Below, piece after piece: positions 717 to 33,450 of a stretch of DNA of 38,485 bases. The translations under genes and the position numbers were made by a program. The notes below the pieces were generated by a model that was given only the letters and a program-made list of their open reading frames with translations, was not told the origin of the DNA and searched no databases. Numbering within the stretch: position 1 is the stretch's first letter; each line of letters opens with the position of its first letter. Origin of the DNA: a phage. The stretch lies in NCBI GenBank assembly GCA_016969615.1, contig GCA_016969615.1_4548.1; one strand, written 5' to 3'.

Positions 717-3700
717 TCCTTGATGTGGATACCTTGCTCCTCAAACGTTCCAAGCAACAGCTTCTGGGTAATTGGGTCGTTCGGAACCAGTTCACGGAAC
801 GTATTATACATCCCGGTCATGTAGTCACGCTCGTTGACACGAGTATCGGCCTTGAGGTAGCCAGCCAAGTTGTAAGCCGAAGCGCCAACGTTAGCAGCAT
901 ATCCGAAAGCTGGAACCTGCTCCAAGAAGTTACCAACAATATTCATCACAGGGTCACTTGTAGCTGCACCATACGCGATGGCACGTTCAGTCTTCTCTGT
1001 AGACGAACGAGGTAGGATAGACGAACGGAGCATCTTAGTGTCCTCGTACCCAGCGATACCACCAAGAATGTTAGCTACCCCAAGTGGTCCACCGAGATGT
1101 GAACTACGGGACAGAGCCGCATAACCAATCATCGTCGGGTCCAGAGCTTGCTTGAGGTAGTCACGGTCACGACCATCCTGCATAGCGTAAGCCTTGATGT
1201 GTGCCTGAGCCATGTAGTAGATACCAGCAAGACCCATAGACATCACAGTGGACAGTGCAGCGTCAATCGCTCTGTTGTTCTTCGTGGCGTTATAGAAGGT
1301 TCGCATGGTTCTCCCATTGATGGACTTGATGACGAAGTTCTTAAACTGAAGGACAGTCTTAGCCAGAGGGCCATAAGCCTTGGCGTCCATGTTACTCAGC
1401 TTGTGTGGACGAAGCAATGTCTCGTCAGCGATGGTGTCGCCCATACGCCACAGGTCCATAGCCCTTGGGTCCTGACTAAACGCCTTCTTATCCTTGATCG
1501 TGTACTTCCCGTCTGGACCACGCGTCACTGACTCACGGATGAGGGACTTAATGCCCTTCCACTGCTCGTCAGAGATACCAGCGGTCTTCAGCCATCGGTC
1601 ATCGAACTTACGCTTACTACCAGTCAGGCTATGCTCCACGATGTCAGATAGGAAGCCTTGACGTCCAGCATCTAACAGGTAGTTGGTCGTACCGTTTAGG
1701 ACTTTAGTGAACGGAGAGCGTACGGCAAGTTCACCAGTGTAATACTTGGCAGTCCCCAGAGCTGTAGCTGCACCACGACCGAGGTCACTGTAAGACCGCA
1801 GACGGTCGATGACATCCTGTTTAGACGGACGGATTGAGTCATCCAATTCTTTACCGAAGAGAACACTATGCAGGTCCTTAATCTCTGAGGCCCCTACCTT
1901 CTTGTTACGGAAGGCTAGGTCACGGAACATCGGGACTCCATGCAGCAGCGCACGAACGTTGCCACGAGCCAGCATGCCTCCAATCTCCGTTAAGTTCTGA
2001 ACACCCATGTAGGCATTCTTAGCGAAGAACGATAGGTCTGTCATTGTGCGCATCACGGTAGCGAAGGCTGCATCATCAGCACCATCACGTCGAGCACGAC
2101 CAGTTAGAATCTTCAAGGTGTCACGTAAGGTAGATACCTCACCTTTCAATTTACCGTCATCCCCAGCCTTGTTCATCATGGTCTCAACCAAGTCCTTCAT
2201 GTCCTTCGTGGTTTTGCCTGTACCAGCCATGATAGCAATATCGCCATTAACTCGACGGTTGTAGGCCGGGACAATCTTGTCCATGTCCCACTCACGCAGG
2301 TTGTTGACACTGAAGGTCTGACCGTTAGGAAGGACGATTGACATATCGCTATCGAACAGGTTACGAGCCTCAAGGAAGCTGTTGTTCTCCAGACCAACCA
2401 GACCGTTGATGTTCTCTTCCATTACGGATGAACGTTCGAACTGCTCGGTGTGAGAGATACCGTAAGCCTTATCGTTGGCGTACTTATCGACCGCAGCAGA
2501 AAGTCCCTCTGGAGTCAACGTAGGGTCAGCCTCTAAGAGTGCCTCGTCCACGCGTTTCTTGACTTCAGGTCGAGACGCATAGCTGGTCAACCATGACTTC
2601 TTGATGGCCTCCTGCAACGCCTCTGGACTCCCAAGCTCCTTGATGTACAGCTCCTTCATCTGTTTGCTATACACATGAGGGACGTAGGTCCCCTTGAATC
2701 GGCTACCCGGAAAGATAGACTGAGCGTCTGGACGACCAAACATAGCTGGGTTCTCCATCATCTCACGCTTGGCGTCAAACTGGTTCTTCAGTAGGTCATA
2801 GACTTTCAGCTCTCCCGGAGTCAGTTCAGCCTTCAGGTTCCCACTACCATCTTCGATAGCCATGGACACACGCTGGTAGATGTCCTGACGGAATGCACCA
2901 GAGTCTCGCCAGAATGCTGTCTGGAAGTACGGGTCCTTTAGTGCCTCAGTAACCGCATCGTCGATGTCGTTGTAGAACCGATGGTCCACAGCACGAAGTC
3001 TCTCGAACACGTCTGACGCAGTTGTCCCGATTTTACCTGAGGCCCCAGACTGCATACCAGTTGGTGAACGCACTAAGTCAGCAGCTACTCCACGAATCTC
3101 AGGGTTCTCAGACCGAAGCAGCTTCAGACCAATCTCGGTAAGTCCGCCAAGGTTCACGCCAGCAGCTGCACGTTCCGGCTCAATCACTTCGTCAAAGACT
3201 TGACGTGTCTTAGGGTTCAGAGGGTTCTCACCAATCAGGATTGAACCATCTTCCAGTCGTACACTACCCGGCTCGTTCGGAACGTCAGCGAACTTAACAC
3301 CTTGATGACTAAAGGTCTGCTCACCTTCCTGAATAGGTAGACGAGACAGGTCCTGACCGTCAACATTACGTGCAGTCTCACGGGCTTCCAGACGTGTGGC
3401 TGGACCAGCAAACTCATTAGTGTTGCGGCCCAAGGCTCTTCCTAGTCCATCAGCGATAGCAGTCATACCACCACCGAATAGAGCGCCACCAAGGATAGCT
3501 TCAGCCACATGAGCATCACCACCAGCCACTGAGGTACGGGCCATCTCAGACACACCAGCCAGTGCTCCGGATTGAGCCGCCACGGTGAACATCTTGTTTA
3601 CCAGTTTACCTCCTTTACCCACCTGTCCAGCAATCGGAACGTATGTCAGAGGGTCAACGCCAGCGCCAATAACACCAGCAGCCAACTGAGCACCAGTCCC

Positions 3701-7947: not shown

Positions 7948-7980
7948 AAAGTCTCCTTATAACCTTAAGGGCCTATAGTC

Positions 7981-7998
7981 CCTATAGTGATAGTTAAG
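7981..7998 (-). promoter_or_regulatory. Phage RNA polymerase promoter core upstream of gene 13
   Basis: minus CTTAACTATCACTATAGGG; sits inside a 12-bp perfect inverted repeat (7967..7978 / 8005..8016). Confidence 0.8.
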
Positions 7999-22216: not shown

Positions 22217-22267
22217 TCACTCCTTAATCACAAATGCGAACAAAGGGACAGGACTCACGGTCCCATC

Positions 22268-22285
22268 CCTAAGGTGATAGTTTAG
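22268..22285 (-). promoter_or_regulatory. Variant phage promoter upstream of gene 4
   Basis: minus CTAAACTATCACCTTAGG, two mismatches to the core (CACTATAGG to CACCTTAGG); contains the stop of the upstream small gene. Confidence 0.55.
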
Positions 22286-27796: not shown

Positions 27797-30478
27797 TTAA
27801 GCGAATGCAAAGTCTGAAGACAAGATGTCTTCGATATTCAGTTTACCTTTCTTCGGAAGCTCTGGCAGCTTGTCGCGCTGGCTCTCATGAAGCTGGTATT
27901 CAAACTGCTCATAGAAGTCAAGCAGCACATCGTTGTCGCGGTAGGTCTCGACCATCGTCTCACGGACACCACGGAACAGATACTCAGCGTCAGCCGGGAT
28001 GGTCCCGAAGCTATCGTGAATCACTGCGAATGACATCACGCCATACTTGCGGTGAGTGTGGACTACAGTCTTGCGGAGGTGGCAGCCATCTTGTGAGTGG
28101 ACGAAGTTCGGGCTAATTCCTGACTCCTGCTTGTGCTTGTCCAGATCTTTCTTCATGCCTTTGTTGACGGTAGGCTGAAGGTTAAATGATCCTAAGAACA
28201 TCAGGTTCAGACGCGTGGTATCCTTCTTGCGGTATTCCTGCCAGACCGGGAACCCATCAGGTGTGACCCAGTGTACCGGAAGGCAAGGCTTCAGGATTTC
28301 ACCAGTCTTCTTGTCTTTCACTTCAGCAGCAAGCAGCTTGGCAGCACCTTGAAGCCACTTCATCGCGTCAACCGCAGCGACTACAGTCACAGACACAGCT
28401 TCCCAAATCATCTTAGCCATGAAGCGGGACGCTTGGCTTGGTTCGGTGAACATAGCGCCAGACCCTGAGTCAATTGCTGGCATCACGATGTCCTCGTAAA
28501 CTTGGTCTGCAAAGCCGTACTCTTTCGACCCGTAGGCCAGAGTCATGACTGAGCGCTTAGTAACCTTGCGTGACATACCGTAAGTCAGCCACTGCCGGGC
28601 CAGCTCTCGTGTCCCCAGCTTGAGACGTTCGGTAATCTCACCAGTCTTCTTATCCTCATGAGTGACCATCTCGTTGTCCGTACCATTAACCAGCAGGACT
28701 TTAAGCTCTTCCTCAATGCGGTCAGATACGATGCGGTAGATGTCTTGGACCTTACCGGAAGGCGTCAGGTTTACTGCATGTCCACCGATGTGATCACGAA
28801 GCATCGCGCTAAAGTGCTGAATCCCAGAGCAGGACCCATCGAATGCTATCGGCAGCGAGCAGGAGTAAGACAATCCGTGATGCATTACGCCAGCATACTC
28901 GAAGCAGAACGCTAGGAAGCAGAACGGAGAGTCTAACTTTCCCCACCACTCAATGCTGTCCATCGGTGCCTTAGCGGCAGCCATGATGTTGTCGTGGTTG
29001 TCTTCCACCCACTTGATGCGCTCCTCGAAGGTTACTTTATCGACACCCGCGCAGTTTGCCCCGTGGACCTTCAGCCATTTGAAACCGTCGGCCCCAATAG
29101 GCTTACCGACCGCCAGAGTCAGAAGACCCTTTTGCATGTCGTTACCTTGAGGGTTGAACATCGGAACAGCGTATACACGACCTCGCCAGTCCATATTGTA
29201 CGGAAACCATATGGCCTTGAACTGAGAGAATTTGTTCGCTTGGTTGACTATAAAGCTCAGTGACAATCTTCGCGACCGCCGGGCCTTCTCTCGGCGGTAG
29301 ATGCCAGCAGCAGCCTTCTTCCATGCCTTGAGTTCCTCTTCAGTATCCCCCGCATAGTCTTCAGGCTTCAGCGGCTCCATCTGAGGGATGTCGTCAATAG
29401 GCGTGTTATTCAGCTTCTCGACCTTGTTCACCACGTCCAGCACCTTCTTGTTCACTTTCCAAGGCGTATTCTGGATGATATTCACAGCGTCATAGACTTC
29501 AGGCATGTACACATCTTCGTAGCGTGCCACCGCAGACTTAGACCCTAAGCGAATCAGTGGTAGTGGTCTGCGACCTTTGGCCCAGTACCCACCGCCTACG
29601 ACACCAGTCCACGGCTTAGGTGGAACGACGCAAGGCTGGTAGACTGGAGCGATACCCGCAAGGCTGAATCCTCGTTGTGCCATCTTCTTGACCCAGAAGT
29701 CTGACAGGTGGACCATCTCAACGTCAGCCGCTACATTACCAGCACCGTAACGCTTAAGCTCAACCAGTTGTGTAGACTGGATGACAATCTCAAGCATCTT
29801 GATGCCAACGTGTACCGCTTCGGTCGGACTCCAAGTACCCCACGCATCTTCCAGCTGACCCTGCTCCAGCATGGAGGTCTCAACCGCTTGCATGTAGGCT
29901 TTCTTATAGGATGCCCCGGCTCGCTTGTTCAGGTTCTCAGCTATCGCCTTCTTGAAGTGCGCCTGCTCCTTGTCTCGGATTCGACCGAAGCGGATTTCAT
30001 CTTCAAGTGTGCGACCTATCGCGGAGGCCATCGGTGTAATCGGTATACCTTCAGGCTTGACCAGCTTGGAGAGGATGACCTTCAGTATGATAACCGCAGC
30101 AGACTCACAGGAGATGTGCAAAGAGCGGTCCTTGACGGCCTTCTCTTCAGTGCTCAACATGGTGAACGCTACGCTCGGACGTGAGGTTGACAGCTTCCCG
30201 TCTTGACCTTCATGCCACTCCCTGACGGCTTGCGCAATCTTAGGAACCAGAGTCTGCATCAAAGGCTTGGCTACCTGATTGTCTGCCAGTTCCCCGCGCT
30301 CAGTCTGTCGCTCAAGGTTCTTGATGAAACGTCGCTCGCCTTCAGTGTATGCCTCATGCTCAAGCTGAAGCTGTTTGACTGCAAGGTCTTGCCCGTAGTG
30401 GTCAGCCAGCAGGTTAAACGGCTCAATGGCGTTCGACACATCGGAGAAGTCGTGTTTGTCAATAGGGATGACTCTCAT
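27797..30478 (-). CDS. gp1: DNA-directed RNA polymerase (single-subunit, T7 type)
   Basis: 893 aa; near-continuous alignment with T7 RNAP (PFCFLAFCFEYAGV.HHGLSY.CSLP.AFDGSCSGIQHFSAMLRD, HDSFGT, FAFA C-terminus); specificity-loop region differs from T7. Confidence 0.97.
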   Translation of the reverse strand: MRVIPIDKHDFSDVSNAIEPFNLLADHYGQDLAVKQLQLEHEAYTEGERRFIKNLERQTERGELADNQVAKPLMQTLVPKIAQAVREWHEGQDGKLSTSRPSVAFTMLSTEEKAVKDRSLHISCESAAVIILKVILSKLVKPEGIPITPMASAIGRTLEDEIRFGRIRDKEQAHFKKAIAENLNKRAGASYKKAYMQAVETSMLEQGQLEDAWGTWSPTEAVHVGIKMLEIVIQSTQLVELKRYGAGNVAADVEMVHLSDFWVKKMAQRGFSLAGIAPVYQPCVVPPKPWTGVVGGGYWAKGRRPLPLIRLGSKSAVARYEDVYMPEVYDAVNIIQNTPWKVNKKVLDVVNKVEKLNNTPIDDIPQMEPLKPEDYAGDTEEELKAWKKAAAGIYRREKARRSRRLSLSFIVNQANKFSQFKAIWFPYNMDWRGRVYAVPMFNPQGNDMQKGLLTLAVGKPIGADGFKWLKVHGANCAGVDKVTFEERIKWVEDNHDNIMAAAKAPMDSIEWWGKLDSPFCFLAFCFEYAGVMHHGLSYSCSLPIAFDGSCSGIQHFSAMLRDHIGGHAVNLTPSGKVQDIYRIVSDRIEEELKVLLVNGTDNEMVTHEDKKTGEITERLKLGTRELARQWLTYGMSRKVTKRSVMTLAYGSKEYGFADQVYEDIVMPAIDSGSGAMFTEPSQASRFMAKMIWEAVSVTVVAAVDAMKWLQGAAKLLAAEVKDKKTGEILKPCLPVHWVTPDGFPVWQEYRKKDTTRLNLMFLGSFNLQPTVNKGMKKDLDKHKQESGISPNFVHSQDGCHLRKTVVHTHRKYGVMSFAVIHDSFGTIPADAEYLFRGVRETMVETYRDNDVLLDFYEQFEYQLHESQRDKLPELPKKGKLNIEDILSSDFAFA

Positions 30479-30497
30479 ACTTAAAGTCCTTGTTATT

Positions 30498-30538
30498 AGT
30501 CTTTCACTTAAAGTCTCTTTGGTCTTTCACTTGGAGTC
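30498..30538 (-). repeat. Two 18-bp direct repeats in the gene 1 leader
   Basis: plus agtctttcacttaaagtc (30498..30515) and ggtctttcacttggagtc (30521..30538), 15/18 identical, between promoter and gene 1 RBS. Confidence 0.6.
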
Positions 30539-30551
30539 TTAGACCTTGAGT

Positions 30552-30569
30552 CCTATAGTGATAGTTAAG
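30552..30569 (-). promoter_or_regulatory. Phage RNA polymerase promoter core immediately upstream of gene 1
   Basis: minus CTTAACTATCACTATAGGACTCAAGG; about 70 nt upstream of the RNAP start codon. Confidence 0.8.
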
Positions 30570-30575
30570 TCAGAA

Positions 30576-30836
30576 TCACTTGCATATCAGTGGGTTAGCG
30601 TGAAGATGACTGAAGTCACCATGAGTCGTATGCTTGATGGTTGACCGTTGGTCTATCGCCTTCCAGCCTGAGACCAGAAGTTTACCATCGTCAGTGATTG
30701 GTCGTCCACCATACGCCAGACACATCAGTTCGGACTTATAGCCCTCAGCCCGGAGTCTTGCTTGCAGTACACGGTCGCGCTCCTGCTGTTGACGTGCGGA
30801 GTGTGAAGAGTGGCGGTGAGTGTATGTAGATTTCAT
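30576..30836 (-). CDS. Hypothetical 86-aa early protein
   Basis: ATG overlaps (ATGA) the stop of the restored HNH reading frame; no domain recognised. Confidence 0.55.
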   Translation of the reverse strand: MKSTYTHRHSSHSARQQQERDRVLQARLRAEGYKSELMCLAYGGRPITDDGKLLVSGWKAIDQRSTIKHTTHGDFSHLHANPLICK

Positions 30837-31248
30837 TGTTGGTGCTCCTGTAAGTATTTGATTGCTCTCGCCAGCAGTTCCTGCGAGTCGTTAAATTTTC
30901 CCAGAGTGGTGTTACATGAAAAGCAGAGAAGACCTCGCACCTTCCCCCCGTGGAGTGGCAGTGGTCTACTGCGAGTCGTTGCCCTCTAGTCTCTTCCCCT
31001 GCACATATCGCACACACTCCACCCTGCCTCTCAAGCATCGCATCGTATTCTTCCACAGTAATCCCGTACAGTCTTTTAAGGAAGGATTTGCGCTGCACAT
31101 TCTTGAAGCTCTCTTCATTGCTGCGCTTTTTTCGTGCCAAATACTTGCAGGCTTTGCATTGATTTTCGTAACCATCCTTATGCCCCAGATGTTTATAAAA
31201 ATCAGTCAACGGCTTTAATGTGTGACACTTCTTGCATATCTTTTCCAT
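30833..31248 (-). pseudogene. Endonuclease VII-type HNH endonuclease, reading frame broken at a C6/G6 homopolymer
   Basis: 0-frame gives ...GGVCAICAGEETRGQRLAVDHCHSTGG then off-motif residues; the -1 frame after the six-C run at 30944..30949 reads KVRGLLCFSCNTTLGKF... (canonical Endo VII motif) and ends TGA overlapping the next ATG. Confidence 0.75.
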
Positions 31249-31445
31249 CACAGCTTACTTCCCAAAGTTGCTATATCCCAGACGTTCGCGAGGTTGCGCA
31301 TGAATCGTCCGTTAGGTTGACGTACAGTCCAGCGGCCCGGACGTACATAGTTGAATTTGTAGACTTTACGCGCCTTGTTAATGTCTCTCATCAGCACGTA
31401 GGCGATAAGTCCATAGCCTATGACTATCAATAGTGTTATACTCAT
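31248..31445 (-). CDS. Small membrane protein (65 aa)
   Basis: N-terminal hydrophobic helix MSITLLIVIGYGLIAYVLM; stop overlaps the HNH start; ATG overlaps the stop of an upstream 29-aa ORF. Confidence 0.5.
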   Translation of the reverse strand: MSITLLIVIGYGLIAYVLMRDINKARKVYKFNYVRPGRWTVRQPNGRFMRNLANVWDIATLGSKL

Positions 31446-32496: not shown

Positions 32497-32618
32497 TAGT
32501 TAGTCGCTATCGGCGCACATTAAGAGTTTATCCAGATTGTTAAAGAGCATTCGCATTGGCTGTCGTCGCCGTGCTATCCCGTTTCAGTGTTGGGACTCAC
32601 TAATCTTGCTTGCCGTAT

Positions 32619-32647
32619 AAGTTACTACAGTCAAACCAGCTTGTCAA
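32619..32647 (-). promoter_or_regulatory. Host sigma70-type early promoter candidate (A3-like)
   Basis: minus TTGACA, 17 bp, TAACTT. Confidence 0.4.
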
Positions 32648-32686
32648 TCACTTTCTTAACTCGCTTGCTGTCCTGCTTGGTGAATC

Positions 32687-32715
32687 ATACTACGTTAAGT
32701 CTTACATCTTGTCAA
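32687..32715 (-). promoter_or_regulatory. Host sigma70-type early promoter (A2-like)
   Basis: minus TTGACA, 17 bp, TAGTAT; upstream TAAGTAGACAGCCTGATAAGTC matches the T7 A2 region as I recall it. Confidence 0.6.
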
Positions 32716-32827
32716 CTACTTTCTGTCATCTGCCTGTTGTTCGTATGACTTATCAGGCTGTCTACTTAACCTGGATGACCCGGCGTCTCCACTATCCGGT
32801 TGTTGCCGTGTCGTGTTGACGGAAGCT

Positions 32828-32856
32828 ATTAAGCCACAATCTAGACCCATAGTCAA
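32828..32856 (-). promoter_or_regulatory. Host sigma70-type early promoter candidate (A1-like)
   Basis: minus TTGACT, 17 bp, CTTAAT with AT-rich upstream stretch; layout resembles T7 A1. Confidence 0.45.
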
Positions 32857-32940: not shown

Positions 32941-33064
32941 CTTAAGTCTATAGCCATTGTGTCTATTAACTGTAGGTTTATACTGTAGGTGTTGGTGTCG
33001 TATGGTTGAGACTGTAGGTTAGTGAGACTGAAGGTTGTGACTTATGGTTGTGACCTATGGTTAT
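32941..33064 (-). repeat. Array of short degenerate repeats on the genome-left side of the junction
   Basis: at least seven copies of minus AACCTACAG-like units (plus ctgtaggtt, cttatggtt, cctatggtt); analogous to the T7 CCTAAAG arrays. Confidence 0.5.
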
Positions 33065-33239
33065 ACAGATAGAGACTCAGAGACAGACCGATAGTCCCAA
33101 CCTATCGTCCCGACCTCCAGCCATAGCCTAGACCTATCGTCTTGACCATCGGCCCAACCTTATGATATACTGGGGTAGGGCCTTTGGTCTGGACTGAAAG
33201 AGGGCCTATGGGGAGACTTGAGGTTCTTGAACTGTGAGA
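33065..33239 (-). repeat. Candidate terminal-repeat region / physical genome left end (single junction copy)
   Basis: minus strand from 33239 reads TCTCACAGT...CCCCATAGG...GTCTCTGAGTCTCTATCTGT, resembling the start and end of the T7 terminal repeat as recalled; extent is a guess. Confidence 0.3.
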
Positions 33240-33450
33240 TGTGGTCTCAAACTTTTGGTCCAAAACTCATCGTCCCTCCTTAGGAGTCCCTGCTACTGTA
33301 GGTAATACCGTAGGTCAGAGACCTTGGGATAGACCATGGACTGCTATAGTGTTACTTTAGGTCCTTGACTACAGTAGCTAAGGTCAGTAGAGTGAGTCTT
33401 TATCCACGTACTGACCTTAGGTCTTCCGCTCATGAATCATTACCATGATT
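33240..33450 (-). repeat. Short degenerate repeats on the genome-right side of the junction
   Basis: minus GACCTAAGG, GACCTTAG, GGACCTAAAG, GACCTACGG, CTCCTAAGG units; contains a degenerate promoter-like sequence at 33339..33360. Confidence 0.45.

Follow-up and report, generated by a model that had tools for sequence, protein, structure and literature searches.

Which RNA polymerase transcribes the polymerase gene of a T7-like phage, and what sets the output of that gene once the phage enzyme has been made? T7 is the textbook case of a polymerase gene that is transcribed by the host enzyme alone, and ahead of its gene 1 lie the minor host promoter C and the RNase III site R1. For the locus examined here, the initial annotation proposed a phage-type promoter directly upstream of gene 1, through which the polymerase could amplify its own transcription, and two direct repeats in the leader, which could temper this amplification as an operator or as an RNA structure. 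We evaluated these proposals within the window, by which we mean the whole stretch of DNA analysed (38,485 nucleotides), and among related phages.

The promoter ahead of gene 1

The window is a complete Kayfunavirus genome (K1F-like, Studiervirinae) of about 38.5 kb, with all long ORFs on the minus strand. It shows the reverse complement of the genome and is circularly permuted. A 701-nt query spanning the promoter region matched 213 phage records, mostly of Kayfunavirus, at 80-99% identity. The ORFs around gene 1, eight of them early and upstream and two just downstream, comprise ocr, an endonuclease VII-like gene, a T3 gene 1.05-like gene and unknowns, and the gene content of the early region upstream of the promoter is highly mosaic among relatives. 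The second codon of gene 1 is AGA in the window and AGC, GGC or AAC in 13 compared relatives. The features of the locus are listed in Table 1.

Table 1. Features at and around the start of gene 1, in window coordinates
Feature	Position	Strand	Remarks
Cluster of three sigma-70-type host promoters	32611-32856 (about)	(-)	Orthologous to EcoDS1 'host RNAP promoter' features
Upstream early gene, 86 aa, phrog_7066, function unknown	30576-30836	(-)	ORF list, PHROGs
Predicted phage RNA polymerase promoter, -17 to +6, ACTTAACTATCACTATAGGACTC	30570-30548	(-)	Exact match to the window's own consensus
5' leader of gene 1, 75 nt	30479-30553	(-)	37% GC vs 50% for the genome; purine- and A-rich
Distal direct repeat, GACTCCAAGTGAAAGACC	30521-30538	(-)	Transcript +16 to +33; + strand reads ggtctttcacttggagtc
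Proximal direct repeat, GACTTTAAGTGAAAGACT	30498-30515	(-)	Transcript +39 to +56; + strand reads agtctttcacttaaagtc
Third, weaker repeat copy, 71% identity	30469-30489	(-)	Translation initiation region of gene 1
Gene 1, single-subunit T7-type RNA polymerase, 893 aa	30478-27797	(-)	97.9% identical to K1F gp1
Next phage promoter, core 15-mer	27037-27023	(-)	First one downstream of gene 1

The core 15-mer of the promoter, ACTATCACTATAGGA, occupies 30565-30551 (minus strand) with 0 mismatches. Across the window, ACTATCACTATAGGA has 13 matches at up to three mismatches, 12 of which lie on the gene strand, whereas the chance expectation is 1.0 and a count of 13 was reached in none of 100 shuffles, which supports a promoter of the phage type immediately ahead of the polymerase gene. 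The site is intergenic, flanked by the stop codon at 30576 and the gene 1 ATG at 30478; the phrog_7066 gene ends with its stop codon 5 nt ahead of promoter position -17, and the gene strand upstream of gene 1 reads ...TGA ttctg ACTTAACTATCACTATA/GGACTCAAGGTCTAAGACTCCAAGTGAAAGACCAAAGAGACTTTAAGTGAAAGACTAATAACAAGGACTTTAAGT ATG. The limits -17 to +6 and the start site G30553 (+1) were assigned by analogy with T7. The resulting 5' UTR of 75 nt, from G30553 to the ATG at 30478, agrees with the distance of about 70 nt given by the initial annotation. Its description of the promoter as full consensus holds for positions -13 to +2 but not for -14, at which the site has T, a minority variant common to two other promoters of the window. 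Class II (middle) promoters of T7 initiate with GGA; the site before gene 1 does so too, as do the other middle-type promoters of the window, and the capsid-gene promoter has GGGAGA. Together with the comparison of lineages described below, these features lead us to regard the site as very likely to be a functional phage promoter.

We also considered how transcription from this site would relate to gene 1 and its surroundings. No terminator-like site was found in 30479-30553, between the promoter and gene 1, which suggests that newly made phage polymerase can transcribe its own gene, as the initial annotation had put forward, and continue downstream. The next phage promoter lies about 760 nt past the gene 1 stop, with two small ORFs between, and is taken to be the counterpart of T7 phi1.1A; it has just a 40-nt leader ahead of the next ORF. 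A further phage promoter downstream of gene 1 is present in every genome that we examined. The host promoter cluster sits about 2.1-2.4 kb upstream, and one of its members scores 10/12 in a sigma-70 scan. The presence of these orthologous host promoters upstream suggests that host polymerase can make the first gene 1 mRNA.

Promoter type and polymerase specificity across lineages

We listed promoter-like sites in the whole genomes of K1F, IMM-002, GW1, EcpYZU01 and CR8 (Caroctavirus), in addition to the window, and found three promoter types. K1F, the window and IMM-002 have TAAACTATCACT (...TAAACTATCACTATAGG), GW1 and EcpYZU01 have TAAACCCTCACT (...TAAACCCTCACTATAGG), and CR8 has AAGGAAGGTACACT (TAAGGAAGGTACACTATAGG). 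In each genome, the site located 75-87 nt before gene 1 bears that genome's own specificity sequence. The specificity loop of the polymerase likewise comes in three types: TRLNLMFLGSFNLQPT in K1F, the window and IMM-002; TRLDLMFLGTFRLQPT, with a T3-like Asp, in GW1 and EcpYZU01; and TRIKLMFMG-VQYRPT in CR8, the polymerase of which is 78% identical. Across the six genomes, the three promoter types (positions -12 to -8) match the three loop types. The site thus tracks the polymerase through two specificity changes, which would be unexpected if it were not used as a promoter and therefore argues that the promoter is real. Consistent with this correspondence, a T7 polymerase fitted with the K1F specificity loop drives, orthogonally, a promoter with the K1F sequence at -12 to -7 (PMC3458549).

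The distribution of the arrangement was surveyed in 80 Studiervirinae loci, in each of which we sought an own-type promoter within 400 nt upstream of gene 1. Such a promoter was present in 21/21 loci of the Kayfunavirus/Caroctavirus type, whereas none was found in the 58 loci with promoters of the T7, T3, K11/KP32, Berlin or other types (0/58), which agrees with the initial annotation in that the T7 type lacks the arrangement; one further surveyed locus showed no detectable promoter family. The promoter, the leader and both repeats are shared by 23 IMG/VR Kayfunavirus loci as well as by K1F, EcoDS1, CR44b and PE3-1. The arrangement is, as far as these sequences tell, an inherited trait of the Kayfunavirus/Caroctavirus lineage. 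Slightly off-consensus versions occur in several lineages: A replaces T at -2 in the IMM-002 group, C replaces T at -4 in KE14/KE05, and G replaces A at -3 in EcpYZU01. These deviations suggest that the strength of the promoter may be modest and the feedback small; the promoter is probably short of maximal strength.

That the promoter followed the polymerase through at least two specificity changes argues that self-transcription was selected and is not an accident. We weighed against this the possibility, to which we give minor but real weight, that the promoter is genuine and self-amplification incidental, the selected role being that of a first middle promoter that serves the downstream genes and allows the fast phage polymerase to take over the drawing of the genome into the cell. 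Transcription-coupled genome entry is established for T7. Transcripts from the site would pass gene 1 and meet no terminator-like site directly after it, where none was seen; the GGA start is that of the other middle-type promoters; and weakened versions are tolerated in some lineages, all of which fits such a role. However, the promoter at 27037-27023 could fulfil the same functions without a 2.7-kb detour, and a location 75-87 nt ahead of gene 1 has been retained in 21/21 loci despite the mosaic early region.

The gene 1 leader and its repeats

The two 18-nt repeats lie exactly where the initial annotation had placed them, at 23 nt start to start. They are identical at 15/18 positions (16/18 if shifted by one base) and have in common the exact 11-mer AAGTGAAAGAC (gene strand). 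When the leader was shuffled 5000 times with dinucleotides preserved, an 18-mer pair with at least 15 matches occurred with P = 0.0028 (about 0.003) and an exact repeat of at least 11 nt with P = 0.0046. A repeat search extended the pair to a three-copy family, with 30496-30516 as the reference, 30519-30539 at 86% and 30469-30489 at 71%, spaced by 27 and 23. The third copy had been overlooked by the initial annotation. Tandem Repeats Finder, which is not suited to so small a number of interspersed copies, reported nothing in the leader. The sequences AAGTGAAAGAC and GACTTTAAGT are not general intergenic motifs of the window, which indicates that the repeats are specific to the gene 1 leader.

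The third copy coincides with the initiation region of gene 1, which consists of the Shine-Dalgarno (SD) sequence AAGGA, an 8-nt spacer (CTTTAAGT) and the ATG. Predicted anti-SD pairing is -5.1 kcal/mol for AAGGA, a weak SD, and -3.9 kcal/mol for each AAGUGA repeat core; the predicted accessibility of the repeat copies is intermediate, and the AGTGAAAGAC core of the proximal repeat starts 30 nt ahead of the ATG. Upstream mini-ORFs with GTG starts from the two AAGTGA cores (8 and 3 codons) were considered and rejected as a conserved feature, since they are absent or different in GW1, EcpYZU01, IMM-002 and CR8.

We examined conservation of the leader in 14 K1F-clade genomes. In the intergenic block, which comprises the promoter and the leader, 8/97 columns are variable, compared with 45/110 flanking third codon positions (Fisher p = 6e-8), so that the block is five-fold less variable than the adjacent third positions. 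Over the whole of gene 1, about 61% of third positions vary. The variable columns of the leader number five: +7, +8, the CC of GACT-CC-AAGT and one base of the central pair in GACT-TT-AAGT. Third-position variability falls to 28-43% in the 180 nt on each side, compared with about 60% farther out, which suggests that conservation of the leader could partly reflect recombinational homogenisation instead of selection. We conclude that the leader, repeats included, appears to be under purifying selection and that recombinational homogenisation probably contributes to its conservation.

The repeat pair as such is kept just in the K1F/EcoDS1/CR44b clade, and the spacing of the copies differs by lineage, at about 13 nt in IMM-002, 23 in the K1F group, 24 in GW1 and 28 in CR8. 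A related module, defined as AGT followed by 3-4 A/T/G bases and then GAC, is found in 12 copies within the six gene 1 leaders and in five copies everywhere else in these genomes on both strands, an enrichment that is overstated because the pattern was defined after looking at the leaders. The proximal module starts at -30 in the window, -30 in K1F, -33 in IMM-002, -29 in CR8, -33 in EcpYZU01 and -31 in GW1. As would be expected of a ribosome standby site, the proximal module lies upstream of the SD in the region contacted by the ribosome and is found at a conserved distance from the start codon in six lineages, for a pattern recognised post hoc.

Based on these observations, we propose that the leader may be an unstructured, A-rich translation leader derived from three diverged copies of one module. 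It would have grown by duplication of a ribosome-binding module, the last copy of which would be the ribosome-binding site of gene 1, and the two upstream copies may serve gene 1, with its weak SD, as standby sites for the ribosome or as enhancers. This is the most economical reading of the repeats, and we hold it tentatively, on the strength of the position of the copies and their weak pairing. The leader also bears some resemblance to a known enhancer. The 'epsilon' translational enhancer of the T7 gene 10 leader has TTAACTTTA within ...AACTTTAAGAAGGAG..., and the gene 1 leader contains two occurrences of the epsilon 8-mer ACTTTAAG, one within the proximal repeat and the other immediately ahead of the ATG. 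The leader lacks the complete epsilon sequence, and we treat the resemblance as a lead and not as membership.

Other readings of the repeats were weighed against the translation leader, beginning with the two roles suggested by the initial annotation, neither of which fared well. As an operator, the repeats would offer two sites to a phage or host DNA-binding protein that blocks polymerase just after initiation. The two copies are significantly similar and constrained, their variable columns are the central bases of GACT-NN-AAGT, as expected for a spacer within a recognition site, and MarR sites flanking a promoter upstream of the RNA polymerase gene have been proposed in some temperate T7-like phages (PMC10134795). 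Nevertheless, we consider an operator very improbable: no DNA-binding family was found by Pfam or PHROGs among the ten ORFs flanking gene 1, which include small proteins of unknown function, and no early-region ORF matches such a family; the copies are spaced by about 13, 23-24 or 28 nt according to lineage; they lie at +16 to +56 and do not overlap the promoter; and these phages have no lysogeny module. A regulatory RNA structure, or an RNase III site like T7 R1, was likewise suggested in part by the initial annotation and would be in keeping with the hairpin at the same position in T7/T3-type loci (L028-L031), but this was the least probable of the readings and is already disfavoured. For the 84 nt that begin at +1 and reach into gene 1, the predicted folding energy is -15.2 kcal/mol (z -0.69); neither this segment nor the 201-nt region around it (z -0.50) folds better than shuffles, and the consensus fold over six lineages reaches -1.65 kcal/mol with inconsistent pairs. 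Furthermore, the repeat search revealed no inverted repeat in the leader region, and Rfam gave no match for the leader at E up to 1.

Three further alternatives were weighed. The repeats could lack any function of their own, having arisen by local duplication of the ribosome-binding region and been homogenised by frequent recombination at the conserved promoter junction. The identity of the third copy with the translation initiation region, the loss of the pair outside the K1F/EcoDS1/CR44b clade, the lowered synonymous variability in the flanks and the mosaic gene content upstream are all compatible with such an origin, which we nonetheless judge unlikely given the five-fold lower variability of the intergenic block relative to adjacent third positions (p = 6e-8) and a related module at -29 to -33 even in CR8, with its polymerase of 78% identity. 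Distinctly unlikely, in our estimation, is that the two leader modules (core AGTGAAAGAC), of which the proximal one stays about 30 nt ahead of the ATG from K1F to CR8, form a specific recognition site and not generic leader sequence. The polymerase, or some other factor of the phage or the host, might use such a site to tune translation of gene 1 and so cap the positive feedback; alternatively, the modules might be the DNA element of a replication origin coupled to the promoter. In either case, they would represent a form of control not yet described in this well-studied group of phages. In the primary origin of T7, an AT-rich stretch containing primase sites lies downstream of phage promoters, and the recognition core of the T7 primase is GTC. 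The promoter and the AT-rich leader might correspondingly serve as a replication origin, with the repeats as DNA-level elements. Here too the sequence after the promoter is AT-rich, with 63% AT in the leader compared with 50% GC for the genome, a feature that is necessary for this role and far from sufficient; the leader shows constraint in its nucleotide sequence; GTC trinucleotides are numerous on the complementary strand, one of them within TGGTC at 30520-30524; and the promoter downstream of gene 1 has a leader of just 40 nt. However, the resemblance is purely architectural, GTC is common by chance, and the proximal module keeps a fixed distance from the ATG, which speaks for a role in translation more than for one in replication, so that we find an origin quite improbable.

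Proposed self-transcription of gene 1 and its relation to known systems

Taken together, these results lead us to favour, with fair confidence, the explanation that 30570-30548 is a working class II-type promoter that feeds back on the polymerase, and, more tentatively, that the leader it produces is a translation leader; initiation in vivo, the size of the feedback and the translational role of the repeats are what we infer. According to this explanation, host RNA polymerase would start at the three sigma-70 promoters and make the first gene 1 mRNA. The polymerase protein, once made, would also initiate at G30553 and would transcribe gene 1 itself before continuing into the DNA-metabolism (middle) genes. 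Gene 1 would thereby be part of the early as well as the middle transcription unit, which implies positive feedback on polymerase synthesis. T7 lysozyme inhibits the polymerase, and this inhibition applies to class II promoters; lysozyme inhibition would be the most plausible brake on the feedback. The phage promoter and its leader would replace the host promoter and hairpin of T7/T3-type relatives. In genomes of the T7/T3 type, the interval that separates the last early gene from gene 1, where T7 has R1, holds a sigma-70-like promoter together with a hairpin rich in GC, a pattern visible in L028-L031, whereas in the window this interval is occupied by a phage promoter and a leader lacking significant predicted structure.

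The promoter, as distinct from its function, has been recorded before. The same promoter is annotated as 'phi' in EcoDS1 (EU734172, 2244-2266), as 'predicted promoter' in CR44b (HG818823, 1814-1836) and, mislabelled, as 'host RNAP promoter' in PE3-1 (KJ748011, 2874-2896). In all three, the 23-bp promoter is identical to that of the window and is followed by the same 75-nt leader with both repeats; the leader is identical to the window's in EcoDS1 and PE3-1 and differs at one base in CR44b. In CR8 (HG818824, Caroctavirus), the corresponding position carries a promoter of the CR8 type, annotated as 'predicted promoter' at 3356-3378. The leader repeats are annotated in none of the EcoDS1, CR44b, PE3-1 and CR8 records, and the K1F GenBank record has no regulatory features. 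The initial annotation had named, as what would count against its proposal, an arrangement that is universal and already described in close relatives, and this largely describes the situation, with 21/21 loci carrying the arrangement, although the description consists of GenBank annotation alone. Universal in the clade and annotated in several public records, the promoter is therefore already known. Within the literature covered by our search, we found no published functional study in this genus and no Kayfunavirus transcript 5'-end mapping. The recent Kayfunavirus papers covered mention promoter repeats just generically.

A comparable arrangement has been described in the Pseudomonas phage LUZ100, in which ONT-cappable-seq mapped a phage-specific promoter, phi1, directly upstream of the polymerase gene (PMC10134795). 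The authors proposed a positive feedback loop that is bootstrapped by read-through of host polymerase (PMC10134795). The window shares with LUZ100 a phage-specific promoter directly before the polymerase gene. However, LUZ100 is a distant, possibly temperate member of the Autographiviridae for which a MarR-like repressor is proposed and in which the promoter was mapped experimentally, whereas the window has no lysogeny module and no recognisable repressor, and its promoter is predicted from sequence. The locus also recalls an engineered construct, the T7 autogene, a term still in use, in which Dubendorff and Studier reportedly placed T7 gene 1 under a T7 promoter in 1991. Both circuits place the gene of a single-subunit polymerase under the cognate promoter, and in the window we found both a cognate promoter with no intervening terminator and host promoters that could provide an independent first route to the polymerase. 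The T7 autogene is artificial and can be maintained just with added repression, whereas the arrangement in the window is natural and belongs to a lytic genome, for which runaway expression costs little.

To what was already recorded, our analysis adds the evidence of covariation between promoter and polymerase, the distribution of 21/21 versus 0/58 loci, and indications of selection on a leader with a module about 30 nt before the ATG, points that we consider modest. The constrained leader may offer a small, cheap target for studying how polymerase output is set, and the arrangement is relevant to users of K1F polymerase and promoter parts in synthetic circuits. For the biology of the group, these findings suggest that, unlike T7, the sister lineage of Kayfunavirus and Caroctavirus keeps a cognate promoter before its polymerase gene, which matters modestly for the control of timing in T7-like phages.

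Genome ends and promoter-like sites across the window

The window sequence is circularly permuted. Short repeats such as ACCTACAGT and CCATAGGTC form arrays at window positions ~32990-33120, within 32950-33250 (-). Short-repeat arrays of this kind are typical of T7-group genome ends. The phage promoter that follows the terminase gene would correspond to T7 phiOR. The combination of end-type repeats and a phiOR-like promoter places the physical ends inside the window, near 33.1-33.3 kb. Elsewhere, a promoter overlapped by a second promoter-like core is kept in all five Kayfunavirus genomes examined (the window, K1F, IMM-002, GW1 and EcpYZU01). The primase/helicase gene is preceded in relatives by a proper promoter (GW1: CACTAAAGG), whereas in the window the site at this position is weak and promoter-like.

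Promoter-like sites and an early-region ORF, in window coordinates
Feature	Position	Strand	Remarks
Promoter with directly following, overlapping second promoter-like core (CACTATAGGGACTATAGGCCC)	7971-7994	-	
Weak promoter-like site ACTATCACCTTAGGG	22267-22281	-	3 mismatches; before primase/helicase gene
Endonuclease VII-like ORF	30745-31251	-	Pfam PF02945; early region
Weak promoter-like site AGTAACACTATAGCA	33342-33356	-	3 mismatches
Phage promoter	33810-33796	-	3' of terminase gene

Surroundings and start of gene 1

Relatives differ widely in the genes they carry between ocr and gene 1; IMM-002, GW1 and CR8 have a protein kinase there that the window lacks. The final 100 nt before the gene 1 promoter are shared. 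At the gene itself, IMM-002 carries at 3440-3497 a GTG preceded by AGGA; the gene 1 ATG follows this GTG 15 codons downstream in the same frame, with no intervening stop. The same upstream in-frame GTG is present in loci L017-L022, and the polymerase of the IMM-002 group may thus have an N-terminal extension. Equivalent GTGs in the window open ORFs of only 8 and 3 codons.

Public labels and natural variants of the gene 1 promoter

In PE3-1 (KJ748011), the phage promoter before gene 1 (2874-2896) carries the GenBank label 'host RNAP promoter'. It matches the phage consensus at every base, so this label looks wrong. Many RefSeq and Pharokka-style records (e.g., NC_023576 and NC_011042) also name the T7-type single-subunit polymerase 'N4-like RNA polymerase', a misleading automatic product name.

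Two IMG/VR loci, 2974609768 and 2974652514, have promoters with a K1F-like specificity sequence (AATTAACTATCACTAT), yet the N-terminal regions of their polymerases share only 49-51% identity with that of the window. Neither locus has a phage promoter before gene 1. Their K1F-like specificity may reflect convergence or transfer of specificity. The Salmonella phages KE14 and KE05 have a gene 1 promoter with a T-to-C change at -4 (CACCATAGG), together with a 1-nt deletion in the distal leader repeat, the copy farther from the gene 1 ATG. These natural variants could be used as they stand to test how strong the promoter is and what the repeats do.
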